A stretch of DNA of 64,000 bases from a virus. Its lineage: Duplodnaviria > Heunggongvirae > Uroviricota > Caudoviricetes. The translations under genes and the position numbers were made by a program. The notes beneath the pieces are model-generated. The model made no database searches, was not told the origin of the DNA, and saw nothing but the letters and a program-made list of their open reading frames with translations. The stretch lies in IMG/VR virus record IMGVR_UViG_3300012016_000001, positions 1 through 64,000 of that record, one strand, 5' to 3'. Of this stretch, positions 1-64,000 are shown piece by piece (the first letter of the stretch is position 1; each line of letters opens with the position of its first letter).

Positions 1-809
1 CAGATGTTAAAAGTTTGTATCCAAAAACTTATCAAAGAGAATTGGTTAATAAACAATTTAATCAACTCATTGATGTAGCTAAACAGGATATGAATCGTCA
101 AACTGGCTTTATAGTGGCTCTTGATGTTTCAGGGTCAATGACCTCTAAAGCTCCAGGTACAGGACGTTCTGCTTATTCTGTTGGGCGTGCTATGGCATTG
201 TACTTCTCTGAATTATTAAAAGGTAAGTTTGCACATACATTCTTAGCTTTTAGTAATACAGTTGTGATAGATAGATTTGAAGGTAAAACTCCTTTAGAGA
301 AATATTACAATGGATATAGAAAGTATGATGCTTGTAACACTAACTTCTTCCAGATTGCTCAGTTGTTTGTGCAACTAAAGAATAGAGGATACAAAGAAGA
401 AGATTTTCCAACAGGTATCGTATGTATATCTGATGGAGAATTTGATAGACCTGGAGGAGACTGGAATAGTACTGGTGATTCTGATTGGAGATATAGAGGA
501 AAAGAAACCAGAGAGACAGTCTTTGAATCTTTTAAGAATCATTTAAAGAAAAATGGCTTCTCCGAAGAGTATGTTGATAACTTAAAAATGGTTCTTTGGG
601 ATGTTCCAAGCTATTACTATAGTTCTAGTCCAGATGTAAAGTTTGAAGCTCTTGCAGACACTCCAAACATTTTCCACATGAGTGGATATGACCCTGCAGG
701 TATTGCTTTCTTAACAGGAACATCACAAGTACAAGTAATTCCAAAAACTCCAGAGGAGTTATTTGAGGCTGCTATGCAGCAAGAGTTAATCCAATTGCTA
801 AACATTTGA
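1..809 (+). CDS. von Willebrand factor A (vWA) domain protein; 5' end truncated by the window edge (frame is open back to nt 1)
   Basis: MIDAS-like motif VALDVSGSMTSK (DxSxS) after a hydrophobic beta-strand. The ORF track starts at a TTG at 15, but the frame continues upstream to the window start. Confidence 0.55.
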   Translation, partial: DVKSLYPKTYQRELVNKQFNQLIDVAKQDMNRQTGFIVALDVSGSMTSKAPGTGRSAYSVGRAMALYFSELLKGKFAHTFLAFSNTVVIDRFEGKTPLEKYYNGYRKYDACNTNFFQIAQLFVQLKNRGYKEEDFPTGIVCISDGEFDRPGGDWNSTGDSDWRYRGKETRETVFESFKNHLKKNGFSEEYVDNLKMVLWDVPSYYYSSSPDVKFEALADTPNIFHMSGYDPAGIAFLTGTSQVQVIPKTPEELFEAAMQQELIQLLNI

Positions 810-854
810 ACCTTTTTACCCCTCCTGCTGTGAAGTCCGAGGGTTTTTACACTT

Positions 855-1259
855 ATGAATCCAGAGAAAATTCCTGTAGAGTTCTTGTTGAAGATGAGTA
901 GGCAAGAATGTGGCGCTTTGAAATCTTACATTCAAGAACTTGAGGATACTATCAAGGAAAAGGATGAAATAATTTTAAAGCAGGAGAAAAAAATTAAGAA
1001 ATTACAGAAAATAAGGCGTCTAAATTCTGTTGTACAACAAGTTGATACTCAAATAAGTAACATTCTTAGCACAAAGAACAGAATAGATGAAGCTCCTGAA
1101 TACAAAAGAGGTAAACGTAAAATTCAACTATATAATAGAATGGCTAAATGTTACAATGTTTGGTATTCGGGCTGTAAGATTCTTATCCCTCTCATGGATG
1201 AACTCGTGCATCCTAAAAAATACGAGAATCCTGAGCCGTCCTCTGAGACTACCACTTAA
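855..1259 (+). CDS. hypothetical protein, coiled-coil / Lys-rich
   Basis: 134-aa ORF with the heptad-rich segment EDTIKEKDEIILKQEKKIKKLQK. Same strand and spacing as neighbours. Confidence 0.4.
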   Translation: MNPEKIPVEFLLKMSRQECGALKSYIQELEDTIKEKDEIILKQEKKIKKLQKIRRLNSVVQQVDTQISNILSTKNRIDEAPEYKRGKRKIQLYNRMAKCYNVWYSGCKILIPLMDELVHPKKYENPEPSSETTT

Positions 1260-4461: not shown

Positions 4462-4473
4462 ATGGGTAATACT

Positions 4474-4543
4474 GGTCCTTAGTTTAGTGGTAAAACGATG
4501 GTCTCCAAAACCATTGTCATCTGTTCGATTCAGATAGGGCCTG
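4474..4543 (+). tRNA. tRNA-Trp (anticodon CCA)
   Basis: Anticodon stem ATGGT/ACCAT with loop CTCCAAA, T-arm ATCTG-TTCGATT-CAGAT, acceptor GGTCCTT/AGGGCCT with one mismatch. Confidence 0.7.
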
Positions 4544-4576
4544 CAATCACTAAAGGGAAAAGAAACTGTAGTTTAT

Positions 4577-5116: not shown

Positions 5117-5205
5117 GCCCTCATCGTATATCGGTCAGTGCTGGAAACAGACGATTACCCCTGCCTTTTAAGCAGGTAAGCATGGTTCGACTCCATGTGG
5201 GGGCA
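5117..5205 (+). tRNA. aberrant tRNA-Lys candidate (anticodon TTT) with ~16 extra nt in the D region (89 nt)
   Basis: Acceptor GCCCTCA/TGGGGGC (one G.U), anticodon arm CCTGC-CTTTTAA-GCAGG, T-arm CATGG-TTCGACT-CCATG. The D region is too long to fold canonically. Confidence 0.4.
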
Positions 5206-5244
5206 CTATAAAAATCAAGACAATAAAAGTAGTTTTTAAGAAAT

Positions 5245-5728: not shown

Positions 5729-5799
5729 AAAGAGGGCTCACAGCAAATTCATTCTAATTTTTTTCGCCATTATAAGTTTGATTAGCTAAAGCCCTCTTA
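5729..5799 (+). repeat. clamp repeat unit (TATAAAGAGGGCT C ACAGCAA ... AGCCCTCTT); first of 4 tandem units
   Basis: 5' arm AAGAGGGCT with its reverse complement AGCCCTCTT 50 nt downstream. ACAGCAA at 5740-5746. Confidence 0.65.
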
Positions 5800-5805
5800 A
5801 ATATA

Positions 5806-5869
5806 CAGGGTACAGACAGCAAACTTTATTTTAGGTTCGAACTTTTAACTCGATGTGTCTAGTACCCTG
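5806..5869 (+). repeat. clamp repeat unit (CAGGGTAC AG ACAGCAA ... GTACCCTG)
   Basis: Second tandem unit. Its core contains GGTTCGAAC, which resembles a T-loop. Confidence 0.6.
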
Positions 5870-5874
5870 CCTAT

Positions 5875-5947
5875 AAAGGAGTCCTACAGCAAATTTGTCT
5901 TACATTCCGAATTGTCATTTCAGAAGAAAAAGAAAATGGACTCCTTT
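5875..5947 (+). repeat. clamp repeat unit (TATAAAGGAGTCC T ACAGCAA ... GGACTCCTTT)
   Basis: Third tandem unit, with 10-bp arms. Confidence 0.65.
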
Positions 5948-5979
5948 TTAAATGAATAACCAATTATAAAATATATTAA

Positions 5980-6053
5980 GGAGGGCATGCAGCAAAAAGT
6001 TTGTAAATAGCGTGTCTGTGTAACATACTTAACAGTGCCCTCCGTTTTTATGA
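5980..6053 (+). repeat. clamp repeat unit (TTAAGGAGGGCA TGCAGCAA ... TGCCCTCC)
   Basis: Fourth tandem unit. Its core contains GTAAATAG, resembling the tRNA-leader hairpin loop. It lies immediately upstream of the ORF at 6082. Confidence 0.6.
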
Positions 6054-6081: not shown

Positions 6082-6876
6082 ATGCAAAAATTAAATGTTT
6101 TATTAGCTCTTAGAGAGAAGTTAGCTAATCGTTATGCCCAAATGAACGGTGACTATACTTCATTCTTTAAGAACAAGCAAGGAGCGTTTCAAGGTACGCT
6201 CAAGACACACTCTCCTTTAGATGGGTATGCAGTAGATTCTACTAAAGTAGCTAATGTGAGAGTTATTACCACAGTCAATGAAAAAATGGATTGGTGGTTG
6301 AAAGAAGCTCTAGACTATTTTAACACAGCTTTGGCTATTGAAGCATCTAATGGGCAAGGTGCTCCTACAGTTGAACTAGAATTCGATGGAAGAACTTACG
6401 GTCCTTTCCCAGCTACTGTGTTATTAAGGCTTCGTGGCATTATAGAGAACGATAAGTTCGCTACAATGCTTGGTAATATTCCTGTTAGAGAGGAGACCAA
6501 AGTTTGGTTGCCTATTGATCAGGATGAAGATTACAAGAGAAGAGGTAATATCTTCCAAACAGAAAGACAAGAAGGTGAGACTCGTACTACAGAAACACAT
6601 GATGAAATCTTGAAAGATCCTAACTTAGATCCAGCTCATCTTCCTTCTAATTACCGTGCTCAAGTAACTCAAGTTAAGAGAACAGTTAAGACTGGAGATT
6701 ATACTACTCAGTCATTTACTGGTGAATGGACACATCAGCAACGTGCTAATCTTTTAAAAAGAAGAAGTGCATTGCTCGATGCTATCAATGTTGCCTTACA
6801 AAAAGTCAATGACCGTGAGGCAATTGAGTGTAAAGTAGATGATCTATTCAGACATCTCATTTATGGACAAAATTAA
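6082..6876 (+). CDS. hypothetical protein (264 aa) within the tRNA island
   Basis: Long ORF with balanced composition. It is preceded by four tandem clamp repeats. No motif recognised. Confidence 0.5.
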   Translation: MQKLNVLLALREKLANRYAQMNGDYTSFFKNKQGAFQGTLKTHSPLDGYAVDSTKVANVRVITTVNEKMDWWLKEALDYFNTALAIEASNGQGAPTVELEFDGRTYGPFPATVLLRLRGIIENDKFATMLGNIPVREETKVWLPIDQDEDYKRRGNIFQTERQEGETRTTETHDEILKDPNLDPAHLPSNYRAQVTQVKRTVKTGDYTTQSFTGEWTHQQRANLLKRRSALLDAINVALQKVNDREAIECKVDDLFRHLIYGQN

Positions 6877-7010
6877 ACTTTAAATATTGACCCTAGCTTT
6901 AGCTTCACACTTTAGCTTTACAGAATCCTAGATAGTAAGCATCAATGTTGTGGTCAAAAGCTTTAGCGAAGTTGATTACAGTGTATTACTTACCTTGACG
7001 ACTATTATCG

Positions 7011-7045
7011 CTCGGTAATCGCGGGTTCAAATCCCGTCCCGCCCT
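7011..7045 (+). other. orphan tRNA 3' half (anticodon-stem 3' strand CTCGG, variable TAATC, T-arm GCGGG-TTCAAAT-CCCGT, acceptor CCCGCCC)
   Basis: Canonical T-arm and acceptor 3' strand, but no matching 5' half upstream. The complementary 5' half lies 71 nt downstream. Confidence 0.5.
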
Positions 7046-7086
7046 CAAACAGAGTTCTTCTGAACTCTGCCCTTTCATGTTACTTT

Positions 7087-7112
7087 AGTCATTGCTTGTG
7101 AAAGTAGTGACT
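7087..7112 (+). promoter_or_regulatory. conserved tRNA-leader hairpin variant (loop TTGCTTGTGAAAGTAG)
   Basis: Stem AGTCA/TGACT, 4 nt upstream of the tRNA 5' half. Confidence 0.45.
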
Positions 7113-7116
7113 ATAT

Positions 7117-7154
7117 GGGCGGGTCGTCTAGTGGTTAAGACTCCGGGTTTTTAA
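7117..7154 (+). other. orphan tRNA 5' half (acceptor GGGCGGG, D-arm GTC-TAGTGGTTAA-GAC, anticodon-stem 5' strand CCGGG, loop TTTTTAA: Lys-TTT-like)
   Basis: Perfectly complementary to the acceptor and anticodon-stem strands of the 3' half at 7011-7045, but located downstream of it, i.e. a permuted order. Confidence 0.5.
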
Positions 7155-7228
7155 GCATCAGCATTATAGGGTAAAATGTAATACGCAAAAGTTCATGGAT
7201 TAGTAAGACGGATTTGTCGCTAATCCTA

Positions 7229-7301
7229 GGGAGAGTAGCTCAGTGGTTAAAGCAATAGTCGCTAAAACTATCGATCGAGGGTTCGAATCCCTCCTCTCCT
7301 G
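7229..7301 (+). tRNA. putative amber-suppressor tRNA (anticodon CTA, reads UAG); G at position 33
   Basis: Acceptor GGGAGAG/CTCTCCT (G1.U72), perfect 5-bp anticodon stem ATAGT/ACTAT with the 7-nt loop CGCTAAA (anticodon at 7262-7264), T-arm GAGGG-TTCGAATCCCTC. Confidence 0.6.
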
Positions 7302-20423: not shown

Positions 20424-20909
20424 ATGATTAACAACTCGAATTCTCCTGCTCCTAAAGTAGTTCGGGCAGATGATGAAGATCGTTGGATTGATATCCACGA
20501 TCACGACCTGATGGTATCCCTAGGTATACAACAGCCTTTTTATGAAGGACGTGACCCTTCTGTATGGAGTAAGACTCCAGATGAAAAGGAAAAACTCAGA
20601 GTCTTAAAAGACCGTTGTACTACTATATTACCACGTCCTTGGCCCTATATAGAGCCAAGAGTACCCTTCTATGGTAAGCTTATTGTTCGTATTCGTCCTA
20701 GCAATAAGTTTAAATTCTTCGATAAGCACAAGAACGAACAGAAGAAGACCTACTTCTCTCATAAGCACGTGTGCATATCAGACATTCCTAACATACTGGC
20801 TCAATACTATGTATGGAAGGACAAAGCCCGTCAGACGTTGGTAATATCGTATACTTGGAATGGCAAAACCTACTCCTACAACGAGTTACCTAACTCCAGA
20901 TGGAAGTAG
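20424..20909 (+). CDS. hypothetical protein
   Basis: 161-aa ORF. Confidence 0.45.
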   Translation: MINNSNSPAPKVVRADDEDRWIDIHDHDLMVSLGIQQPFYEGRDPSVWSKTPDEKEKLRVLKDRCTTILPRPWPYIEPRVPFYGKLIVRIRPSNKFKFFDKHKNEQKKTYFSHKHVCISDIPNILAQYYVWKDKARQTLVISYTWNGKTYSYNELPNSRWK

Positions 20910-47002: not shown

Positions 47003-47503
47003 TTGAATATGCTAGACATTGATAACATACATGTTGATTTAGATATAGTATTATCTAAAAAGACTACATTAAAGCAGTTACTTAATCCAACTGAGTTAGC
47101 TTCTTTAAAGTCTAAAGCTATTAAAAACCACTATGATGATGCAGCCATAATGGAAGCAGCTCATAGGCTTATTAAAGAGAACATTGCAGATTACTTAGAT
47201 AATTCTGATTTTCTTGATGCTAATGTAATATTAGAAACAGACCCTTATATAATTAAGGCTATGGAACTAATGCAAGCTAGTCAACGAGACGCTGGAATAT
47301 TACTTGTAGAAAAAGAGTATAAATATCCGGGATGTTGGGTAAATGATATAGCTAATGCATTAAGAGAACTTAAATGTAGTAGTGATATGTATAACACATT
47401 GGTATGGGATGCTTATTATGTACATAATTATACTAATAATGAAAATATCCCGGGATGGAAAAACCTTCAAGATGTGTTAGAAGATTACTATGACACACTA
47501 TGA
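47003..47503 (+). CDS. hypothetical protein
   Basis: 166-aa ORF. Confidence 0.45.
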   Translation: MNMLDIDNIHVDLDIVLSKKTTLKQLLNPTELASLKSKAIKNHYDDAAIMEAAHRLIKENIADYLDNSDFLDANVILETDPYIIKAMELMQASQRDAGILLVEKEYKYPGCWVNDIANALRELKCSSDMYNTLVWDAYYVHNYTNNENIPGWKNLQDVLEDYYDTL

Positions 47504-48708
47504 CATTAGTTACTAGAGACAGTAAAGGTAAAATCAGAGTCGTTGATATATGGACGAATCACGACTCTGATTCCTCTACTATATGTAGAGAGACTTACCA
47601 ATATCTAGGAAAACATACAAGACAACCTGATATTGTAATAGAAGCTGGAAAAGCTGGGCGTGATATTGCAGCACAATGTGAATTACAATTTATGTCTCAG
47701 TTAAAAAGTTATAAAGATAAAGGTTATAAAGAATTAGAAAAAGACATATCTAAGTATACAGAAAAAGAACTAAATGAAATAGTTGGAGATACTATTACTA
47801 ATCAGCATGGTGTACAAAAACCCATGTTAGCTAAGCAAGCTGACAAAGTGTCTCAAAAGGCTATTGATAAAGTTCCTTACTGGTACGCGAGCAGAAAAAT
47901 AGATGGAGTACGCTGTTCTTTCTATTTAGATGGGGATACTATAAGAACATCTAGTAGAGGAGGAGAGGACTACGATTGTGCTTGTATGCACTTTATAAAT
48001 AATGAAAAATTAAAGAAATTCTATGAAAGGCATCCTGGAATAGTCTTAGATGGTGAACTATATAAACACGGACGGAGCCTTCAACAAATCTCAGGCGCTG
48101 CAAGACTTGAAAAGAATGCTGTAGACTGTGACTGGCTAGAATATTATATTTATGACATCGTAGACACTAACAGAACGTTTGAAGAAAGACTTAAAGTGTT
48201 GGCTGCAATTAAATATGAACTTGGACTCGGATTCAATCCAGAAAGAGAATGGAAAGAAGGAGAACTACAGTTCCAAATGGTTCCACAACAAAAGGTGTCT
48301 GGCTTCAAGAATATAAATATACTTCACGATATTTATGTATCAGAAGGATGGGAAGGAGTCGTTATCAGAGACCCATCTAAAGTGTATAGACCTAATGGGC
48401 GTACCAATGATATGATAAAATTTAAGAAGTATAAAGATGCAGAATTTTTAGTTATAGATTATGAACTAGGTCTTAGAGGTACTGAAGATATGACCTTTAC
48501 TTGTACTACTCCTGCTGGACTAGAGTTTAAGGCTAAGCCTTGGGGAGATAGAGCTATTAAAGAGGAATATGTAAAGAACTTTAAAACTAAGTATCAATAT
48601 AAGTTAGCAAAGATTAAGTTTTTCTATTATTCTAACGGAAATAATGAAAAGACTGGAGTTCCACTTCAACCATCACTTATATGTTTCCGTGATAAATCTG
48701 ATATGTAA
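47500..48708 (+). CDS. ATP-dependent DNA ligase
   Basis: Adenylation motif I SRKIDGVR (KxDG), followed by nucleotidyltransferase motifs and an OB-fold region. Confidence 0.85.
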   Translation: MTLVTRDSKGKIRVVDIWTNHDSDSSTICRETYQYLGKHTRQPDIVIEAGKAGRDIAAQCELQFMSQLKSYKDKGYKELEKDISKYTEKELNEIVGDTITNQHGVQKPMLAKQADKVSQKAIDKVPYWYASRKIDGVRCSFYLDGDTIRTSSRGGEDYDCACMHFINNEKLKKFYERHPGIVLDGELYKHGRSLQQISGAARLEKNAVDCDWLEYYIYDIVDTNRTFEERLKVLAAIKYELGLGFNPEREWKEGELQFQMVPQQKVSGFKNINILHDIYVSEGWEGVVIRDPSKVYRPNGRTNDMIKFKKYKDAEFLVIDYELGLRGTEDMTFTCTTPAGLEFKAKPWGDRAIKEEYVKNFKTKYQYKLAKIKFFYYSNGNNEKTGVPLQPSLICFRDKSDM

Positions 48709-52749: not shown

Positions 52750-53649
52750 TTGATGAATAAAATTATATTATGTCAAGGCATTCAAGGCTCAGGTAAATCT
52801 ACCTGGGCCAAAGCCTGGGCTAAGGAAAACCCAGAGCATAGAGTAAGACTCAATTATGATGACCTACGTAACATGTTAGGAGTTTATTGGGTACCATCTA
52901 GGGAAGATATGCTTAAAGCTATAGAAGAAGCCTTTCTTACTAAGGCTGCAACAAAGAATTGGGATATTGTTATAGATAATATGAACTTGAATCCAAAAAC
53001 TATTGCTAAATATGAGGAATGGGCAGCAGTTAATGGTTATCAACTTGAAAAGGTTCTATTTGATACTCCAGTAGAAGAATGTATAAGAAGAGATGCTATG
53101 CGCCCTAATCCTATTGGTGAAGTAGTTATCAAACGTACTTGGAATACCTATAGAAACTATATAATACAAGAGAGTATTAAAAAGATGAAAGAAAGAGAAC
53201 TTAAACAAGATCCTAATCTTCCACACTGTATTCTTGTAGATATGGATGCTACTCTCTTTTTAAATACTAGTGGGCGTCCTTTTTATGGAGATAATTTGGA
53301 ACCTACTGATATATTAAAAGATGAACCTATTCCAGGTACTATAGCCTTAGTAAAGGCTTATCAAGCTAGTGGTAATCTAGTATTTGGATTAAGTGGGCGC
53401 GAAGATATACAAGGTATTCGTTTGAACACTGAAAAACAATGTGCTAACCAAGGAATATATCTTGATAAATTATTCTTACGTCCAAAAGGTTCTCGTAAAA
53501 AGGGAGACGAGCAAAAGAAAGAACTATTTGAAAAATACATTAAAGGGCAGTTTTATGTAGACTTTGTTCTTGAGGATTCTTCTAAAGTAGTTAAAATGTA
53601 TAGAGATTTAGGACTTACTGTTCTACAACCAAATGAAGGAAAGTTCTAA
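52750..53649 (+). CDS. pnk: polynucleotide kinase / 3'-phosphatase (T4 Pnk-like bifunctional)
   Basis: N-terminal kinase P-loop LCQGIQGSGKST and a C-terminal HAD phosphatase motif ILVDMDATLF (DxDxT). Confidence 0.85.
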   Translation: MMNKIILCQGIQGSGKSTWAKAWAKENPEHRVRLNYDDLRNMLGVYWVPSREDMLKAIEEAFLTKAATKNWDIVIDNMNLNPKTIAKYEEWAAVNGYQLEKVLFDTPVEECIRRDAMRPNPIGEVVIKRTWNTYRNYIIQESIKKMKERELKQDPNLPHCILVDMDATLFLNTSGRPFYGDNLEPTDILKDEPIPGTIALVKAYQASGNLVFGLSGREDIQGIRLNTEKQCANQGIYLDKLFLRPKGSRKKGDEQKKELFEKYIKGQFYVDFVLEDSSKVVKMYRDLGLTVLQPNEGKF

Positions 53650-54738: not shown

Positions 54739-55134
54739 ATGAGCCTGAATGTAATTACGACTAAAGGAAACTTATTGAAGAAGATGACTAAAGAAGAATT
54801 TTTATCTAAACGTACACCAGTATTTGTAGACCCAGAGATTGGGACTATAACACTGGTTAATAATTCTAATTTGAAAGATAAAGATTTTGCAGAAATATTT
54901 TCAAATATAAAAATTAGTTGGCTAGACACAACAAGAGGATACCTACTAGATGATTTTCTGATGTTGTATATAAACGATTATGAAATTCCACGTTTTCATA
55001 TAGGTTGTTGTACTTACTTTTTCAATATGTTTCCTAATATAAACTGGTTAGGATTAGGGTGCAATAAAGGTAAACCTGGAGAAATATGGATACCAAAATT
55101 AATAGTTAGTAAAGGTGATATATGTAGTCTCTAA
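54739..55134 (+). CDS. hypothetical protein
   Basis: 131-aa ORF. Confidence 0.4.
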   Translation: MSLNVITTKGNLLKKMTKEEFLSKRTPVFVDPEIGTITLVNNSNLKDKDFAEIFSNIKISWLDTTRGYLLDDFLMLYINDYEIPRFHIGCCTYFFNMFPNINWLGLGCNKGKPGEIWIPKLIVSKGDICSL

Positions 55135-57388
55135 TCAAACATCTTTCTATTCTAGATTTTCTAGAATTTCTATAAAAGAATCTTTAGATATTATAAAACA
55201 ATGGGAAAGTATTCAATATGACTCTGAGACTCTTGGTAAGGATGCTCACTGTGGTAAACCTCTTTCTGCGCAATTTGGTTCTCCTAAAAAGGATATTCAA
55301 ATTGTAGTTGATTGGACAACAGTAGATGCTCGTAATTATAAGGAAGTTTTAGAAAGTAAACTAATTGTAGGTCAGAATTTAAAGTTTGATTTACAATGGT
55401 TATATAACTATAGTATTACTCCCTTAAGAGTATATGATACTATGATTGCTGAGCAACTCATTTATTTAGGATTTCCTCCTGCAGGTAAACCAGGAGGAAT
55501 ATCCTATGCTTTGAATGAAATTGCGATGCGTTATCTTGGTAAGTATATTGATAAAACTGTTAGAGGTCAGATTCAGTGGAGAGGATTAGATGATGACGTA
55601 ATAGAATATGCAGCAAACGATGTAGTAGACCTAGTAGATATAGCTAAAAAGCAAATAGAGATATGTAAAGAACGTAAATGTATGCGAGCTCTTCAAATTG
55701 AAATGTCTTTTGTTCCTGTTATAGCTTACTTAGAGTGGTGTGGAATTAAATTAGACGTTACTAAATGGAAAGCTAAGATGCAAAAAGACGAAAATAATAG
55801 ACTTAATAGACTTGAAAAATTAAATCAATTCCTTGTTAAATGGTATCAAGATAATAATGGAAAAGATAATATGGTTAGTGTTCCGTATATAGTATCTTCC
55901 TTTATAAAGGAGAATATACAAGAACCTCCACCTAATGCTAAACCTACTTCTCGCCCATATAAAAAGGAGGGAAATGAAGACGATCTTTTCCAGAATTATT
56001 CTATTCCATTCTATATTACAAATAAAAGTGGAAAGATAATCCCATTTATAAAAATAGATTTACAAGGTGATTTATTTCTAGGTTTTAATACCGGTCCACA
56101 ATGTGTACTTAATTGGGATAGTTCTGACCAAGTTATTTATTTCTGTCAACTACTAGGATTTAATACTAAAGTAGAAGATAAAGTTACTGGTGAAGATAAA
56201 GATTCTGTAGTGGAAAAGGCTCTAAAAGTCCAAAAAGGAATAAATGATGAATTTTTAAATCTATATTTTGATTATAAAGAAGCATCTAAAGTGTGTAGTA
56301 CTTATGGTCAAACATATCTAAATGCAATTAATCCTAATACAGGAAGAATTCATACTAACTTTAAGCAATTAGGAGCTTCATCAGGAAGAATGGCATGTGG
56401 AAGTAAACAAGCTAATGATGATTTAGCTAAACTTAAACACGAAGAACTTTCTAAACTACCTTCTAAATTAAGAAAATGTGGTTATCCACAATTACAAAAT
56501 CTTCCAGCTGACCATGATACTAGAGGGGCATTTGTACCTGAAAAAGGAAATCTAATGTGTTCTTGTGATTATTCTGCTCTAGAAAGTAGACTTGGTGCAG
56601 ATATATATCAAGAACAATCTATGATAGATGAATATCTATATGGTACTGGAGATATTCATTCTTTAACAGCTAAACATTGTTTTCCTAAAGAACTAGAAGG
56701 TATTGAAATTAAAGATATTAAGAAACTTAGACCTGATTTGAGAAGTAGAGCTAAGCCAGTAGAATTTTCTCAACAATTTGGAGGAAGTGCAAAAGCTATT
56801 CAAAGTGCTTTAGGTTGTACTGCAGCAGAGGCAAAAGAAATAGCAGAAGCATATAACAGTGGTTTTGCTGGTATAGCACGCTTCAAAGATATAGGGTTTA
56901 AGAAAGTATGTAGAGATGGTTATGTTCTTATATGTAAATATACTGGACATAGAACTTATATGCCAGATTGGCCAGAGTGGAGAAAGGCTATGGATGATGA
57001 AGAATTTTGGGATGAATATGATGCTGCTAAAGACACTTTACCATATAAAGAGTTTAGTAAAACAGCAGTCTATCATAAAGCTTCTGAATTAAGAAAAACT
57101 TCTTCTAAATGGTCTAGACTAGCTCTTAATTCTCCTACTCAAGGTACTGGCATTATCATTTTAAAAGATGCTATGTCTAACTTCTTTAAATGGATAATTG
57201 ATAATAAGTTATTCAATATAGTTAAAATATGTGATTTAGTACATGATGAAGCTGTAATCGAATATCCAAAATCTATGCCAGAAGTAGCTAACATTCTCAA
57301 GGATATAATGGAAAAGTCCGCAGAAAAATTCTGTAAGGCTTTACCTATTCCTGCTGCTCCAGAAGTTGGAATGTGCTGGTTGCATTAA
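55115..57388 (+). CDS. DNA polymerase I family (Pol A) with 3'-5' exonuclease domain
   Basis: Pol A motif A CDYSALESRL, motif B RSRAKPVEFSQQFGGSA, motif C LVHDEAVIE. N-terminal exonuclease-like region. Confidence 0.9.
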   Translation: MIYVVSNQTSFYSRFSRISIKESLDIIKQWESIQYDSETLGKDAHCGKPLSAQFGSPKKDIQIVVDWTTVDARNYKEVLESKLIVGQNLKFDLQWLYNYSITPLRVYDTMIAEQLIYLGFPPAGKPGGISYALNEIAMRYLGKYIDKTVRGQIQWRGLDDDVIEYAANDVVDLVDIAKKQIEICKERKCMRALQIEMSFVPVIAYLEWCGIKLDVTKWKAKMQKDENNRLNRLEKLNQFLVKWYQDNNGKDNMVSVPYIVSSFIKENIQEPPPNAKPTSRPYKKEGNEDDLFQNYSIPFYITNKSGKIIPFIKIDLQGDLFLGFNTGPQCVLNWDSSDQVIYFCQLLGFNTKVEDKVTGEDKDSVVEKALKVQKGINDEFLNLYFDYKEASKVCSTYGQTYLNAINPNTGRIHTNFKQLGASSGRMACGSKQANDDLAKLKHEELSKLPSKLRKCGYPQLQNLPADHDTRGAFVPEKGNLMCSCDYSALESRLGADIYQEQSMIDEYLYGTGDIHSLTAKHCFPKELEGIEIKDIKKLRPDLRSRAKPVEFSQQFGGSAKAIQSALGCTAAEAKEIAEAYNSGFAGIARFKDIGFKKVCRDGYVLICKYTGHRTYMPDWPEWRKAMDDEEFWDEYDAAKDTLPYKEFSKTAVYHKASELRKTSSKWSRLALNSPTQGTGIIILKDAMSNFFKWIIDNKLFNIVKICDLVHDEAVIEYPKSMPEVANILKDIMEKSAEKFCKALPIPAAPEVGMCWLH

Positions 57389-59919: not shown

Positions 59920-60537
59920 ATGGAACTAATAAAGAAATATGAGAATGGGGACAACCTGTTCTTTACATCTGATACCCACTTCTATCATGCCAACATTATA
60001 AAGTTTTGTGGTCGTCCATTTGAAGACGTAGAAGAAATGAATAAAACTTTAATAGACAACTGGAACAAAACTGTTGGAAAGAATGATATTGTTTATCATC
60101 TTGGAGACTTTTGCTTTGCAGGTTCAGCTGCATGGTACTCTTTACTTAGTCAATTAAATGGAAGAATTCACTTAATAGTTGGAAATCATGATGAAAAGAA
60201 TCTTAGGCAGGGTTATTCCCAAATGTTTGAGTCAACATCCTATCAGCAGCGCTTACTTATTGAAGGTTATAATGTGTACCTTAATCATTATCCTTATCTG
60301 TGTTATCCAGGGTATAAGCCCTATACAATGCAGCTTTTTGGTCATATTCATAGTAGCCACAATAAGTTTGATGGAATGGACGCTCAAATTGCGAAAGCTC
60401 AGTTACAACCATCTCAATATGATGTGGGAGTAGATTGGAATAACTTTACTCCCATTAGTTGGGAAGAGATAAAACAAAAGATTATTAAACAAAAAGAAGA
60501 AAATGTTAATATGTACGGTAAATCCAAAAAATTATGA
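59920..60537 (+). CDS. metallophosphoesterase
   Basis: Motifs SDTHFYH, HLGDFCF and GNHDEKN match the calcineurin-like phosphoesterase signature. Directly upstream of the NAD cluster. Confidence 0.6.
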   Translation: MELIKKYENGDNLFFTSDTHFYHANIIKFCGRPFEDVEEMNKTLIDNWNKTVGKNDIVYHLGDFCFAGSAAWYSLLSQLNGRIHLIVGNHDEKNLRQGYSQMFESTSYQQRLLIEGYNVYLNHYPYLCYPGYKPYTMQLFGHIHSSHNKFDGMDAQIAKAQLQPSQYDVGVDWNNFTPISWEEIKQKIIKQKEENVNMYGKSKKL

Positions 60538-61103
60538 ACAAAACTCTAATTATCGTAGACCCACAGTATGACTTTATAGAAGGTGGAAAACTTCCAGTAG
60601 AAGGAGGTAAACAAGCGTTAGACAATGTTGTTGATTACCTTAATTCTGGAGAGGTATCTTTAGTCATCATCACACAAGATTGTCATAATGGAATGCATTG
60701 CTCATTTAAAGAGCAAGGAGGACCATGGCCAGAACATTGTGTTGAAGGAACTCATGGAGCAGAAATTTATAAACCTATATTAGATGCTATAGAGAAAAAC
60801 CATATTATGGTCTATTATCTACAGAAAGGACATTACTTAGAAGAGTATTCTGCTTTTCGTAGACAAACAGAAGGATATGCTCACTGGAAAGAGTATTCTA
60901 CAGAAGATGATAGAGAACCTTATATTCAGTTCCATGAAGATGAAATAGTTCAAATTTGTGGATTAGCTGGAGATGTTTGTGTTATGAGGACTGCTATAAT
61001 CCTTAAAGATATCAAACCCGTAATCATTGAAGATTTAACTGCTTCTTTAAATGCTGATAACTTTAGGAAACTTGCAGACATAAATGGAATTACAATAGTA
61101 TGA
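60534..61103 (+). CDS. pncA: nicotinamidase / isochorismatase-family hydrolase (PncA-like)
   Basis: LIIVDPQYDFIEGGKL, catalytic Cys context ITQDCHNGMHCSF, EHCVEGTHGAEI. Confidence 0.75.
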   Translation: MNKTLIIVDPQYDFIEGGKLPVEGGKQALDNVVDYLNSGEVSLVIITQDCHNGMHCSFKEQGGPWPEHCVEGTHGAEIYKPILDAIEKNHIMVYYLQKGHYLEEYSAFRRQTEGYAHWKEYSTEDDREPYIQFHEDEIVQICGLAGDVCVMRTAIILKDIKPVIIEDLTASLNADNFRKLADINGITIV

Positions 61104-61915
61104 TTAATAATCCAGTTTTAGGAGCAATCATAGGGGACATAATAGGTGTTCCCTATGAGTTCCTTCGAGTGCCTGGGACTAGTATTCCTAAGAATTTCCC
61201 ATTGTTCAAGAAAGATAGTCATTATTCAGATGATTCTGTAATGACTCTAGCTGTAGCAAGATGGTTATTAGAAAAAGATTTAAGTTCATCTGCCTTAATA
61301 AAGTGCATGCAGGAAGTTGGACAAGCACATCCAAATGCAGGTTATGGTGGAATGTTCAGAAGATGGCTATGGGATGAAAATCCAGTCCCATATAATAGTT
61401 GGGGAAATGGCTCAGCTATGCGTGTCAGTCCAGTTGCCTGTGCTTTTGATACAGAACAAGATGTCTTGAAATATGCAAAAATATCAGCTGATGTGTCACA
61501 TAATCACCCAGAAGGTGTAAAGGGTGCACAAGCTATTGCTTTTGCTATTTGGGCAGCACAAGATTGTTGGGGAAAAGATCCTATTAAATTTGAAGTAAGA
61601 GATTTTACTCAGTATGATTTAAATAGGACTCCTAGAGAAATCATAGATTCTGGATATTCTTTTGAAGTAAGTTGTCAAAAGTCTGTGCCTGAAGCAATAT
61701 GCTGTTTCTTAGATAGTAATTCTTATGAGGAGACTGTAAGAAAGGCTGTCTTACTTAAAGGAGATACAGATACTCAAGCTTGTATGGCTGGAGCTATAGC
61801 TGCAGCTTATTGGGGAATTCCAGAAGATATTGCAAGAAAAGGTATTGACTTACTTCCTGGAGACCTATTTGATATTTTGTATGATTTTAGTGACGAATTT
61901 AATTTACCATTATGA
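61100..61915 (+). CDS. ADP-ribosylglycohydrolase family protein
   Basis: GAIIGDIIGVPYE, HYSDDSVMTLA and GNGSAMRVSPV are ARH/DraG family signatures. Confidence 0.85.
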   Translation: MINNPVLGAIIGDIIGVPYEFLRVPGTSIPKNFPLFKKDSHYSDDSVMTLAVARWLLEKDLSSSALIKCMQEVGQAHPNAGYGGMFRRWLWDENPVPYNSWGNGSAMRVSPVACAFDTEQDVLKYAKISADVSHNHPEGVKGAQAIAFAIWAAQDCWGKDPIKFEVRDFTQYDLNRTPREIIDSGYSFEVSCQKSVPEAICCFLDSNSYEETVRKAVLLKGDTDTQACMAGAIAAAYWGIPEDIARKGIDLLPGDLFDILYDFSDEFNLPL

Positions 61916-63093
61916 TTTTAAGTATTTTAGACACTGATTTGTATAAGTTTACGACATCGTATGCTTATCAAAAGTTATACCCTAAAGCAATGGGTACGTT
62001 TGAGTATGTAGACAGAAATAACAACGTCTATGAGGATTCTTTTTTAATAGCCTTGAAAGAACAAATTAATATCCTAGAGACTATTAAATTAACACCTTCT
62101 GAATTCTTCAGTATACTTAATAATAAGTGGTTATCTAGATTTATTCCAACTTCTTATTGGGAATGGTTAAAGCAATTTAACTTTGAACCTAATAAGATTA
62201 AAGTCTGGCTTGATGAAAATAAACATTTACATATTACAGTTACTGATTACTTATATAAGGTGACTCTATATGAAGTTCCGTTACTTTATACAGTATCTGA
62301 ATGCTACTATAAGTACTATAATAAGTTAGCTAATTATGATTTGATGTTTGATAATTTAAAACAGAAAATCACTTTTGCTAATGAAGAAAATCTAATATTT
62401 TCTGAATTTGGCACTAGAAGAAGGTATTCTTCTAATATACATGAACAAGTTATTAAATATCTAAAAGATCATTCTAAAACTTGTGTAGGAACTTCTAATG
62501 TTTACTTTGCATTAAAATATGATATGATGCCCTGTGGTACTTTTCCACATGAATGGGTAATGTTCCATGGTGCAGTATGGGGATTTCAACAAGCTAATGA
62601 ACTTGCTATGAGAGACTGGGTAAGATGCTATGATGGAGATTTAGGAACTGTACTTGTAGATACATACACTACTAAATTTTTCTTAAAGCAATTCTCACGT
62701 AAGTATAGTAAGTTGTTTGATGGTCCTCGTATTGACTCTGGAGATGAAAGAGAGCTTGGAGATTTATTCATAGAGCATTATAAAGCTCTTAATATAAATC
62801 CACTTACTAAAACTTTAGTAATGAGTAATGCTCTTACATTTCCTAAGTTTAAAGAGATTAGAGATTATTTTGCTGGACGTATTAATGTTGTCGCTGGAAT
62901 AGGCACTAATCTTACCAATGACTGTGGAGTTGTACCACTCAATGAAGTTATGAAACTTATAGAATGCCAAGAATATGAAGGAGCACCTAAACTCCCTTGT
63001 ATTAAACGTTCTGATGATAAAGGTAAACGTCTGGGCAATGCTGTACAACATGATATCTTAGACCATATTTTATTAAATGCCTCGCAAGTCTAA
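61912..63093 (+). CDS. pncB: nicotinate phosphoribosyltransferase (PncB, NAPRTase)
   Basis: FSEFGTRRRYS, the NAPRTase signature FxxFGTRR. Length 393 aa. Confidence 0.85.
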   Translation: MILSILDTDLYKFTTSYAYQKLYPKAMGTFEYVDRNNNVYEDSFLIALKEQINILETIKLTPSEFFSILNNKWLSRFIPTSYWEWLKQFNFEPNKIKVWLDENKHLHITVTDYLYKVTLYEVPLLYTVSECYYKYYNKLANYDLMFDNLKQKITFANEENLIFSEFGTRRRYSSNIHEQVIKYLKDHSKTCVGTSNVYFALKYDMMPCGTFPHEWVMFHGAVWGFQQANELAMRDWVRCYDGDLGTVLVDTYTTKFFLKQFSRKYSKLFDGPRIDSGDERELGDLFIEHYKALNINPLTKTLVMSNALTFPKFKEIRDYFAGRINVVAGIGTNLTNDCGVVPLNEVMKLIECQEYEGAPKLPCIKRSDDKGKRLGNAVQHDILDHILLNASQV

Positions 63094-63358
63094 TAAAAAG
63101 GAAAAGGTGGTTATGCCTACTAGACCAGTAGGTGTACCACCCAAGCCTAAAGAAAAGTTGACTCCTGGACAAGTCTTGTATTGTTGGTATCCTCCAACTA
63201 ATGAATTCTATAAGAGGGTATATTTAAGAGATTATAAGGGAGAAGATGAAATCTTATGCGCAGATCCAGATACTAAGCAGCAATGGATTTTAAATCAATC
63301 TCATTTACATAGTACAATTTTAACTGAAAAAGAGTATGTGGAACAAATGGATAAATGA
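63077..63358 (+). CDS. hypothetical small protein
   Basis: 93-aa ORF between pncB and nadE. It overlaps the nadE start. Confidence 0.35.
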   Translation: MPRKSNKKEKVVMPTRPVGVPPKPKEKLTPGQVLYCWYPPTNEFYKRVYLRDYKGEDEILCADPDTKQQWILNQSHLHSTILTEKEYVEQMDK

Positions 63359-64000
63359 ATCTGTAGAGTGCCTTAAATGGTATATAGAAAGAAACAAACT
63401 TAAGAGTGTAGTTCTAGGATTAAGTGGAGGTATTGATAGTACTGTATCTGCAGTAATTTGTCATCTAGCTACTAAAGATAATCCTAACTGTACGTTTATC
63501 GGTAGAAGTCTCCCAATTAAAAATGAAGGAGATGATACATCGATAGCTAAAAAGCTTGGACAAGTTCTTTGTAACGATTTTGCAGAAGTGAATTTGTATG
63601 ATTCTTATAAGTTCTTTAGAGATTCATTCTATAAAGAGGAAGAGGAATCAAAGGCTACTCCAATTTCAGATGGAAACATAATGGCTCGTATCCGTATGAT
63701 ATATCTTTATCAACTTGCTTCCCTTTATAAAGGAATGGTTATAGATACGGATAATTTAAGTGAACATCTTTTAGGTTTCTATACACTTCATGGAGATGTT
63801 GGTGACTATAACATAGGAATCAGATACCTCTATAAGCATGAAATATGGGAACTTGCAAAAGAACTGACTAGTTGGGTTCCAAATGCAAAGAAGTTCATAG
63901 AGGAATCTATGGCTCTTGATCCTACAGATGGTAATGTTGGTGGTACAGATATGGACCAGATTGCTCCTGGAATGACATATGCTGATGTTGATTACGTACT
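63336..64000 (+). CDS. nadE: NH3-dependent NAD+ synthetase NadE (3' end truncated by window)
   Basis: PP-loop motif VLGLSGGIDSTV, with a reading frame from the ATG at 63336 that is open to the window end. Not in the ORF track because it is truncated. Confidence 0.85.
   Translation, partial: MWNKWINESVECLKWYIERNKLKSVVLGLSGGIDSTVSAVICHLATKDNPNCTFIGRSLPIKNEGDDTSIAKKLGQVLCNDFAEVNLYDSYKFFRDSFYKEEEESKATPISDGNIMARIRMIYLYQLASLYKGMVIDTDNLSEHLLGFYTLHGDVGDYNIGIRYLYKHEIWELAKELTSWVPNAKKFIEESMALDPTDGNVGGTDMDQIAPGMTYADVDYV

Follow-up and report, generated by a model that had tools for sequence, protein, structure and literature searches.

Among crAss-like phages, those of the Zeta group have genomes of 145-192 kb, and their branches read TAG as glutamine (Gln), read TGA as tryptophan (Trp) or keep the standard code, while the presence of suppressor tRNAs "is not in perfect agreement" with recoding (PMC7886860). 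The TAG→Gln recoding of crAss-like phages (code 15) has been validated by metaproteomics (PMC9523058). Here, we describe a tRNA gene with the anticodon CUA at positions 7229..7301 (+ strand) of a 64,000-nucleotide stretch of viral DNA (IMG/VR record IMGVR_UViG_3300012016_000001, positions 1 to 64,000), the whole of which is hereafter called the window. Suppressor tRNAs of TAG→Gln crAss-like phages are a known kind of element; unusual here are a G at position 33 that is family-wide, a Trp-type body converted by a C35→U change, the embedding of the gene in a Ro60/Y-RNA unit and the presence of a second, aberrant CUA-bearing RNA. We tentatively favour, with slightly less than even confidence, the view that the tRNA at 7229-7301 decodes UAG as a recent, accessory suppressor, and it may not be the main TAG decoder of the phage.

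The sequence-only reading of the window had described a 73-nt tRNA with a perfect 5-bp anticodon stem, the loop CGCTAAA and CTA at positions 34-36, and ARAGORN, Rfam and the sequence itself agree on this structure. ARAGORN, the kind of predictor by which that reading had proposed to check the anticodon, called 7229..7302 (+) with the anticodon cta at position 34 in the same register, and the match of 7229..7301 to the Rfam family RF00005 covered the full model (1-71) at 60.2 bits (gathering score, 29; E = 3e-11). The acceptor stem GGGAGAG/CTCTCCT includes a G1·U72 pair and is followed by the discriminator G73, the anticodon stem ATAGT/ACTAT has five perfect pairs, the D loop (AGTGGTTAAA) contains GG, the variable loop CGATC has 5 nt and the T arm reads GAGGG-TTCGAAT-CCCTC. 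In the register given by both ARAGORN and Rfam, the loop CGCTAAA occupies 7260-7266, with CTA at 7262-7264 and G33, as the earlier reading had also pointed out, at 7261. Of the features expected of a canonical tRNA, the purine at position 37 is present (A37, retained together with A38 in a perfect 7-nt loop), whereas U33 is replaced. With RNAfold, the acceptor stem and the T arm were recovered (-24.0 kcal/mol, z = -3.1), whereas neither the D arm nor the anticodon hairpin appeared in the fold; the full cloverleaf is taken from ARAGORN and Rfam. A second assembly of this phage (L002) contains an identical tRNA, and 7229-7301 is a genuine tRNA gene with a CUA anticodon in a crAss-like phage.

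The name "tRNA-Pyl" that ARAGORN gave to 7229..7302 reflects the CUA anticodon only. Hallmarks of tRNA-Pyl are a 6-bp anticodon stem, a 3-nt variable loop and a small D loop without GG. In the gene at 7229-7301, by contrast, the cloverleaf follows the canonical 7/4/5/5 pattern, the variable loop has 5 nt and the D loop is normal and contains GG; no pylS, pylB, pylC or pylD gene was seen, and Gln aligns with TAG (see below). A true tRNA-Pyl, in favour of which the ARAGORN label is the only point, is thus hardly credible, and this identity was rejected on the basis of the structure and of the residues aligned with TAG.

The window sits on a 193,962-bp ENA contig (ERZ28656410, WOLF17-1 scaffold_8; sample WOLF17-1). 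The sequence analysed, comprising the window and two 10-kb flanks, amounts to 81.5 kb or 42% of the genome and includes the whole main tRNA array; positions in the flanks are given below as window equivalents. All genes of the window are on the + strand, the G+C content is ~33%, and the DNA polymerase of family A (55115..57388) is 50.9% identical to that of Kolpuevirus "frurule", followed by other Crassvirales. The size of the ~194-kb genome, its large replication and nucleotide-metabolism block and its many tRNAs fit a "Zeta"-type crAss-like phage. As in code-15 Zeta phages, a large genome is combined with a big tRNA array, TAG stands for Gln only in late-type blocks, the replication genes can be translated with the standard code, and the CUA tRNA is encoded in the standard-code block.

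The plus-strand open reading frames (ORFs) of at least 80 aa in the window (n = 84) end in TGA (40), TAA (38) or TAG (6), and one of the six TAG-ended ORFs is overlapping and probably spurious. The five credible TAG stops, at 20907, 23771, 31629, 43202 and 46707, have an in-frame TAA or TGA 1-13 codons beyond; read-through at these stops would append a short tail only. The sequence-only reading had taken TAG for a normal stop within the window, and this holds in so far as no real gene there is interrupted by an in-frame TAG, though the rarity of TAG among the stops tells against calling it normal. The same reading had placed any recoding outside the window and had named the lack of in-frame TAG codons anywhere in the genome as evidence against a suppressor; recoded genes occur in both flanks. 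On the minus strand, 66353..70963 (1535 aa) contains 30 in-frame TAGs and 70960..73092 contains 10. In the left flank, the plus-strand stop-to-stop frames -4922..-3600 and -3651..-2029 contain 10 TAGs each, of which the called glycosyltransferase gene there includes nine, and the stop-to-stop frame -1792..-1292 contains seven, the gene called at that place (L002 6395..7204) having none. In relatives, the called recoded genes of the flanks are untranslatable under the standard code.

In the recoded glycosyltransferase, a TAG falls on the Q of an invariant RDQ(I/L)S motif, in a column that holds Q in all 15 homologues, which include proteins from 270-356-kb bacterial contigs; a second TAG column holds Q in 13 of 14 homologues. 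When the codons of the 1535-aa gene were aligned with those of six relatives, TAG stood opposite Q 210 times over all pairs, opposite K 86 times, E 74 times and R 40 times, and not once opposite W. These alignments indicate that TAG encodes Gln in the flanking gene blocks of this phage, the reassignment that the sequence-only reading had cited for crAss-like and Lak-type phages. Against an 82%-identical relative, the 30 TAGs of the window phage face TAG at 10 positions, CAA or CAG at 14 and other codons at six, and 2-5 TAG positions are shared with 47%-identical relatives. Among 40 homologues of the 1535-aa gene in IMG/VR, 31 have 11-50 in-frame TAGs and nine have none, suggesting that recoding is old and widespread in the clade, in which standard-code branches also occur. 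The gene contains 30 TAGs in the window lineage versus 11-20 in relatives, and one CAG versus 5-10. The inferred TAG gains, 15 in the window lineage and seven in the sister lineage, do not differ significantly (p = 0.13), and the extra TAG codons and near-loss of CAG may lend weak support to decoding by the CUA tRNA.

Neither a release-factor gene nor a gene for glutaminyl-tRNA synthetase (GlnRS) turned up in the 81.5 kb. Just beyond the window, a protein of 143 aa with a free-standing YqeY/GatB-tail domain (65292-65723; L001 13381..13812) is encoded next to the recoded late genes, and the gene is kept in the relatives L167 and L169. YqeY/GatB-tail-like domains aid tRNA-Gln binding in some GlnRS and GatB proteins, and it is a speculative idea that this protein could assist the charging of a suppressor with Gln. 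When related loci were sought with the 1535-aa protein alone, none was found, and a narrower glycosyltransferase alignment used as the query returned only distant, unrelated phages. In L169 (1..7491; STEW19-1 scaffold_28, a 176.6-kb relative), a gene of at least 3,293 aa adjoins the recoded gene of 1552 aa. Late proteins of this giant size are a typical feature of crAss-like transcription blocks.

The tRNA at 7229-7301 belongs to a family, hereafter family A, of which 18 orthologues were collected from IMG/VR, from JGI metagenomes by way of the conserved preceding hairpin and from ENA contigs. In all cases, family A starts 2-3 nt after the conserved 3′ hairpin of a Y-like RNA (..CTAATCC-TA, then G1), and a second tRNA-like gene (family B) lies downstream in every case. 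RNAalifold recovered the cloverleaf from the 18 orthologues, with compensatory double changes at 17 of the 21 pairs; G1·U72 is found in 13 and G73 in 17 of these sequences. The anticodon stem has changed by compensation (ATAGT/ACTAT, ATGAT/ATCAT and TTTGT/ACAGA) while the loop NGCCAAA was kept. With the window copy included, CCA is the anticodon of 11 of 19 orthologues: the loop is CGCCAAA or UGCCAAA, with G33, in L003/L160, L153/L156, L154, L157, L161, L162, L164 and L225, an NGCCAAA-type loop is cut to 6 nt in L158/L159 and L165, and L163 has CUCCAUA with U33. Elsewhere, the anticodon is UGA (CGUGAAA in L005 and CUUGAAA in L228) or AUU (UUAUUAA in L224), or the loop is degenerate, with 5, 6, 7 or 9 nt (L004, L226, L126 and L128). 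G33 is present in about 12 of the 19, U33 is absent from 16, and CGCUAAA is restricted to the window and L002, that is, to one phage. The orthologues nearest to the window copy by the neighbouring protein are L228 (90%), with UGA, and L225 (89%), with CCA.

The arm ATAGT-C.CCAAA-ACTAT is the common arm of phage tRNA-Trp, and canonical phage tRNA-Trp genes have G73 and in some cases G1·U72. The arm ATAGT-CGCCAAA-ACTAT, G33, G1·U72 and G73 mark family A as a tRNA-Trp-like phage family. On the comparison of orthologues, the window copy is a C35→U derivative (CCA to CUA) confined to this lineage, and its G33 is inherited from family A rather than a defect of this copy alone. Database searches added little: a megablast of the 3-kb region against GenBank phages and a blastn with the module of Y-like RNA, family A and family B gave no match, IMG/VR held no exact match for the anticodon and T arms of the tRNA, and a loose pattern (CAATAGTCNNNAAAACT), which mostly returned chance matches and ordinary tRNA-Trp and tRNA-Ser genes, served only to show the Trp-type arm. 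A canonical tRNA-Trp(CCA) gene, with the loop CUCCAAA, U33 and G73, was also called by ARAGORN at 4473..4544 (+), and the syntenic arrays of L162 and L165 likewise hold both a canonical tRNA-Trp and family A. The family A copy was thus free to change its anticodon.

The supU/su7 suppressor of Escherichia coli is a tRNA-Trp with C35→U that is charged largely with Gln. The Trp-type body on which such a suppressor is built is found in family A (arm, G73 and CCA orthologues), with the same C35→U on a CCA arm and G73 kept, and charging with Gln would fit the reading of TAG as Gln; the CUA anticodon, on the other hand, is not conserved among recoded relatives. In su7, unlike in family A, position 33 is U, and su7 originated in the laboratory by mutation of a cellular gene. 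As a reference for Gln-type acceptor identity we used the tRNA-Gln(UUG) gene called by ARAGORN at 12169..12253 (+), an 85-nt gene with an extra variable-arm hairpin, A1-U72 and A73; in five relatives, tRNA-Gln likewise combines A73 with U1-A72 or A1-U72, in contrast to the G73 of family A.

Considering these comparisons, we outline how the tRNA might act. The family A tRNA would be transcribed with the early tRNA array and freed by the ribonucleases RNase P and RNase Z. Having U35 in place of C35, it would be charged mainly by GlnRS, as su7 is, and would pair with UAG in the ribosomal A site in competition with RF1, which would provide extra UAG-decoding capacity for the TAG-rich late genes. 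The tRNA is the only canonical CUA cloverleaf in the 81.5 kb. The retention of the NGCCAAA loop despite stem changes, together with that of G1·U72 and G73, points to selection on the loop and the acceptor end, suggesting that G33 tRNAs are probably used. Furthermore, tRNA-Val(UAC) with the loop CCUACAA and tRNA-Ser(UGA) with the loop CCUGAAA lack U33 and are kept between phages, which suggests that position 33 is tolerated or adaptive in this group.

The accessory and recent character of the proposed suppressor follows from relatives that are themselves recoded. In L004 and L162, a GIY-YIG endonuclease gene (Pfam) contains five and three in-frame TAGs, respectively, at differing positions, three of which face Q in the other phage, and in L226 (a 179.5-kb contig), called genes contain in-frame TAGs and none of 19 genes ends in TAG. 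Family A has a degenerate loop in L004, CCA in L162 and a 6-nt loop in L226. Recoding thus predates the CUA change and does not depend on it, so that the tRNA at 7229-7301 would be at most a recent accessory suppressor rather than a founding element of the code change, and another UAG decoder must exist in the clade. The sequence-only claim of a suppressor for UAG accordingly keeps its CUA anticodon and its in-frame TAG genes, whereas a dedicated role is unsupported, the orthologues having mostly CCA. That one point mutation in an anticodon can give rise to a suppressor has already been described for Zeta phages, and such an event would be repeated here; in contrast to Zeta suppressors, the tRNA at 7229-7301 has G33, a Trp-like acceptor end and mostly CCA orthologues, is lacking in its CUA form from recoded relatives and lies inside a Ro60/Y-RNA unit.

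Several points weigh against decoding by this tRNA. Nearly all tRNAs have U33, and weaker ribosome binding is to be expected with G33, while a gene with 30 TAGs needs efficient decoding. The anticodon of family A is labile and its cloverleaf is kept, and the conserved function of the family may thus not be decoding. L228 has the acceptor stem of the 7229-7301 tRNA but the anticodon UGA, and a UGA tRNA would be toxic there if this body were charged and decoding. L004, L162 and L226, all of them clearly TAG-recoded, do without CUA in family A. The acceptor end is Trp-like (G73) versus the A73 of phage tRNA-Gln, and TAG never aligns with Trp, so that charging with Gln is an assumption taken from E. 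coli. The gene was picked for its CUA, and one chance CUA among 19 lineages with labile loops is not improbable. Finally, ~58% of the genome lies outside the analysed sequence.

The genomic setting of family A bears on a different explanation of its CUA. YrlA RNAs, in which a T arm, an acceptor-like stem-loop and a D arm follow one another, are encoded next to Ro60 and are known in phages too (PMC4201824); in that of Mycobacterium smegmatis, the acceptor stem has 7 bp and RNase P cleaves the RNA, and YrlA RNAs mimic tRNAs and are substrates of tRNA-processing enzymes (PMC4201824). Directly upstream of the tRNA, 6888..7228 (+) encodes a YrlA-like structured RNA, which measures about 345 nt, contains a tRNA-like domain in permuted order and ends 2 nt before G1 of the tRNA. 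A 5′ hairpin domain, the T arm (7021-7037) and the 3′ strand of the acceptor stem (CCCGCCC, 7038-7044) are followed by an insert of ~72 nt with hairpins between the acceptor strands, by GGGCGGG (7117-7123) and the D arm, and then by one strand of an anticodon-like stem, a long-range closing stem and the 3′ hairpin GGATTAG/CTAATCC (7197-7226). The acceptor strands covary across six phages (GGGCGGG/CCCGCCC, GGGCGAT/ATCGCCC, GGGGATA/TATCCCC, GGGGCTG/CAGCCCC, GGGGCAT/ATGCCCC and GGCGCGC/GCGCGCC), and the RNAs of all six have the same predicted fold with the long-range closing stem. No Rfam family matched the RNA, even at E <= 10. Its order of T arm, acceptor loop and D arm, its closing stem and the Ro60-like gene upstream lead us to call it YrlA-like. 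It resembles the YrlA-type Y RNAs (PMC4201824) in arm order, 7-bp stem, closing stem and upstream Ro60-like gene, and differs from them in its length of ~345 nt, the large insert in the acceptor loop and the two tRNA-like genes that follow. The split halves at 7010-7150 were also considered as a group I intron or a permuted intron-exon arrangement, an interpretation that was dropped in view of the closing stem, the YrlA order and the lack of an intron-model match.

In relatives, the operon consists of a Ro60-like gene (DUF2828 and DUF7788/vWA), a DUF7873 gene, the Y-like RNA, family A and family B. In the window, a DUF7873 protein of 264 aa is encoded at 6082..6876 (+) (Pfam PF25283, E = 1.7e-32), and a DUF7873 gene precedes the unit of Y RNA, family A and family B in all relatives by synteny (L003-L005, L128, L156 and L224-L228). 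The DUF7873 and Ro60-like genes define the operon to which the tRNA belongs. The C-terminal vWA part (DUF7788, Pfam) of the Ro60-like protein lies at 90..809 (+), and 12 tRNA genes separate it from the DUF7873 gene. Its N-terminal DUF2828 part, at -1166..93, is upstream of the window in another frame; the two halves correspond to L002 7271..8530 and 8527..9246, overlap and include one TAG near the end of the first, whereas the gene is a single ORF of 600-616 aa in L128 and L156. A frameshift, a pseudogene or an assembly error could account for the split. The protein is called Ro60-like from DUF2828/DUF7788 and a vWA_Ro60 match of 26.1 bits, below the cut-off of 27.7. DUF7873 homologues with 46% identity are found in all Prevotella Lak megaphages (MK250015-MK250029), which we take to be TAG-recoded, and no Y-RNA or tRNA unit adjoins their DUF7873 loci.

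In this setting, family A may be a non-decoding, tRNA-shaped RNA of the Ro60/Y-RNA operon, acting as an RNase P/RNase Z handle that sets the 3′ end of the YrlA-like RNA or as a partner of the Ro60-like protein, with a loop that drifts and a CUA that is incidental; the decoder of UAG would then be family B or a tRNA in another part of the genome. We consider this possible but doubtful. Consistent with it, family A always abuts the 3′ hairpin of the Y RNA, the cloverleaf is kept by compensation at 17 of 21 pairs while the loop varies among CCA, CUA, UGA (twice), AUU and forms of 5, 6 or 9 nt, U33 is absent from 16 of 19 members, recoded relatives lack CUA in family A, and YrlA RNAs are themselves tRNA mimics handled by tRNA-processing enzymes (PMC4201824). 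A processing handle, however, needs neither NGCCAAA nor G1·U72 nor G73, all of which are kept across divergent stems in ~10 lineages; moreover, the window copy has a perfect 7-nt loop with A37 and A38, and no other canonical CUA tRNA is present in the 81.5 kb.

The other CUA-bearing gene, that of family B, lies 64 nt beyond family A at 7365..7459 (+); its match to the Rfam tRNA model scores 33 bits and includes an insertion of 27 nt within the anticodon arm. Its acceptor stem is AGCGGGT/ACCCGCT, followed by A73; the D and T arms are normal, and the anticodon-like arm is long and irregular and contains TTCTAGG (7417-7423), which can be read as U32 U33 C34 U35 A36 G37 G38. ARAGORN does not call family B in the window, and calls its short orthologues tRNA(cta). 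The motif TTCTAGG occurs downstream of family A in 19 of 19 related loci, from 16 of which full-length sequences with covarying acceptor stems and A73 were extracted; their lengths are 75-107 nt, and the extract from L157 is 5′-truncated (72 nt). Thermodynamic folding of family B was uninformative (z = -1.4 to -2.2).

Family B might thus be the main amber suppressor of the clade, a divergent Gln-type tRNA(CUA), frequently overlooked by standard tools, beside which family A would be a helper at most; we hold this to be possible, though short of probable, and it is compatible with either a decoding or a non-decoding family A. The motif U33-CUA-G37 is present in all 19 loci, the 16 extracted sequences share A73 with phage tRNA-Gln, U32, U33 and G37 match the tRNA-Gln loop UUUUGGU of the relatives, and ARAGORN itself returns tRNA(cta) for the short forms. 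Furthermore, family B is the sole CUA-bearing tRNA seen in the arrays of the recoded L004, L162 and L226, "extremely divergent" undetected suppressors have been proposed for recoded Zeta phages by Yutin et al. (PMC7886860), and another gene of the array, at 5117-5206 and probably a tRNA-Lys(UUU), has an insertion at the same place. On the other side, the anticodon-like arm is irregular and variable in length, the loops of the short forms have 9-11 nt, and the arm of the window copy, which forms either 6 bp, a bulge and 3 bp or a 16-nt loop, is hard to fit to tRNA geometry. The motif is also unchanged in a non-recoded phage (L128/L215, contig 3300045988_034373), in which L215 has no TAG in 1277 late-gene codons and an L128 gene ends in TAG TAG, and apart from A73, U32, U33 and G37, family B has no overall similarity to tRNA-Gln.

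ARAGORN called 22 tRNA genes, including that at 7229-7301, and one transfer-messenger RNA (tmRNA) gene between 2.7 and 12.5 kb, and unusual forms recur among them. A tRNA-Val(UAC) gene at 12415-12489, with C33 and the loop CCTACAA, is conserved in L165; a tRNA-Ser(UGA) with C33 and the loop CCUGAAA occurs in L161 and L165; and a tRNA-Glu gene of 86 nt (12326-12411) has an extra variable-arm hairpin. The 90-nt tRNA at 5117-5206, which is also found in L165, was called tRNA-Val(gac) with A33 by ARAGORN and probably reads better as tRNA-Lys(UUU), with the stem CCTGC/GCAGG, the loop CTTTTAA and an extra hairpin of ~17 nt between the D and anticodon arms; Lys is otherwise absent from the array. Non-canonical tRNAs are thus frequent in this phage group.

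The tRNAs of T5 and of mycobacteriophages reportedly carry anticodon-loop substitutions that evade host anticodon nucleases, and family A resembles them in its conserved non-canonical anticodon-loop positions. To our knowledge, substitution of position 33 has not been described as a strategy of nuclease evasion. Family A might nevertheless consist of nuclease-resistant tRNAs or decoys, in which G33 blocks cleavage beside the wobble base and the anticodon tracks the attacked host tRNA, so that CUA would have nothing to do with stop decoding. The recurrence of non-U33 loops among the tRNAs of the array, kept between phages, is in line with such a role, as is the presence of a tRNA-repair kit, which suggests that host anticodon nucleases exert pressure on the phage. 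The kit is made up of a T4-like polynucleotide kinase-phosphatase (Pnkp; 52750-53649), with the domains AAA_33 and HAD_PNKP, and of an ATP-dependent ligase with an RNA-ligase signature (47500-48708). The linkage to the Ro60/Y-RNA module also fits, such modules being located in RNA-repair operons in bacteria (PMC7790460). Against this role, there is no host tRNA with a CUA anticodon to mimic, and, unlike in T5 and the mycobacteriophages, neither a nuclease nor a cleavage site was identified for family A; the proposal is entirely inferential, and we regard it as very unlikely.

The readings may also be combined. The G33 tRNAs of family A would be functional, with a non-U33 loop selected for a reason such as nuclease resistance, single-base anticodon switches in this redundant copy, in the window from CCA to CUA, would let the phages gain or boost stop decoding, and family B would be the "undetectable" Gln suppressor. 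This combination as a whole seems unlikely to us.

Stop-codon recoding in gut phages is established, and which RNA decodes the reassigned codon is often unclear. A single recoded genome in which a Trp-bodied cloverleaf with G33 stands beside a U33 RNA with an aberrant anticodon arm provides a test case. If the G33 tRNA works, U33 would be dispensable in a natural decoding tRNA, and a su7-type suppressor would have been born in nature; if it is inactive, automatic "Sup-CUA" annotation in recoded phages can name the wrong gene. The link to a Ro60/Y-RNA operon is furthermore a lead into the manipulation of host tRNA metabolism by phages.

Other structured elements surround the two tRNA-like genes. 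Between family A and family B, a leader hairpin at 7333..7360 (+) (TAGTATC/GATACTA) has the loop motif GTCTGTGAAGAT, and a similar hairpin at 7088-7114 (TAGTCA/TGACTA), with the loop TTGCTTGTGAAAG, lies before the 5′ half of the tRNA-like domain of the Y RNA. Both share the loop motif G(T/C)(T/C)TGTGA(A/G)A, and in L004, L128, L226 and L161 the stem of the 7333-7360 hairpin covaries while its loop is conserved; such hairpins could be promoter, leader or protein-binding elements. Downstream of family B, an element at 7500-7655 starts with ACAGCAA. Enclosed by a long stem (AAGGAGAC...GTCTCCTT), it comprises a T arm at 7548 (TAGGG-TTCGAAT-CCCTA) and, after it, a hairpin of 7 bp (TCCTCCC-TAAT-GGGAGGA), and it may represent another Y-like RNA, of the YrlB-like kind. 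At ~5730-6047, four hairpins of 60-70 nt, arranged in tandem, have (A)AGGAG-like arms with ACAGCAAA or GCAGCAAA 5′ of the loop, a motif that matches that of the 7500-7655 element, and look like an unknown family of small-RNA or regulatory repeats. The tmRNA gene inside the tRNA array (10705-11064; Rfam 68.4 bits) has the tag peptide GENNTTPRAKVVSIVYRAAA.

Towards the right end of the window and beyond (60534-64000 and onwards; L001 8623..13388), a cluster related to nicotinamide adenine dinucleotide (NAD) encodes an isochorismatase (nicotinamidase-like), an ADP-ribosylglycohydrolase, a nicotinate phosphoribosyltransferase (NAPRTase), an NAD synthase, a nucleotidyltransferase (CTP_transf_like) and a Nudix protein, and resembles the phage NAD+ reconstitution pathways that counter NAD-depleting defences.

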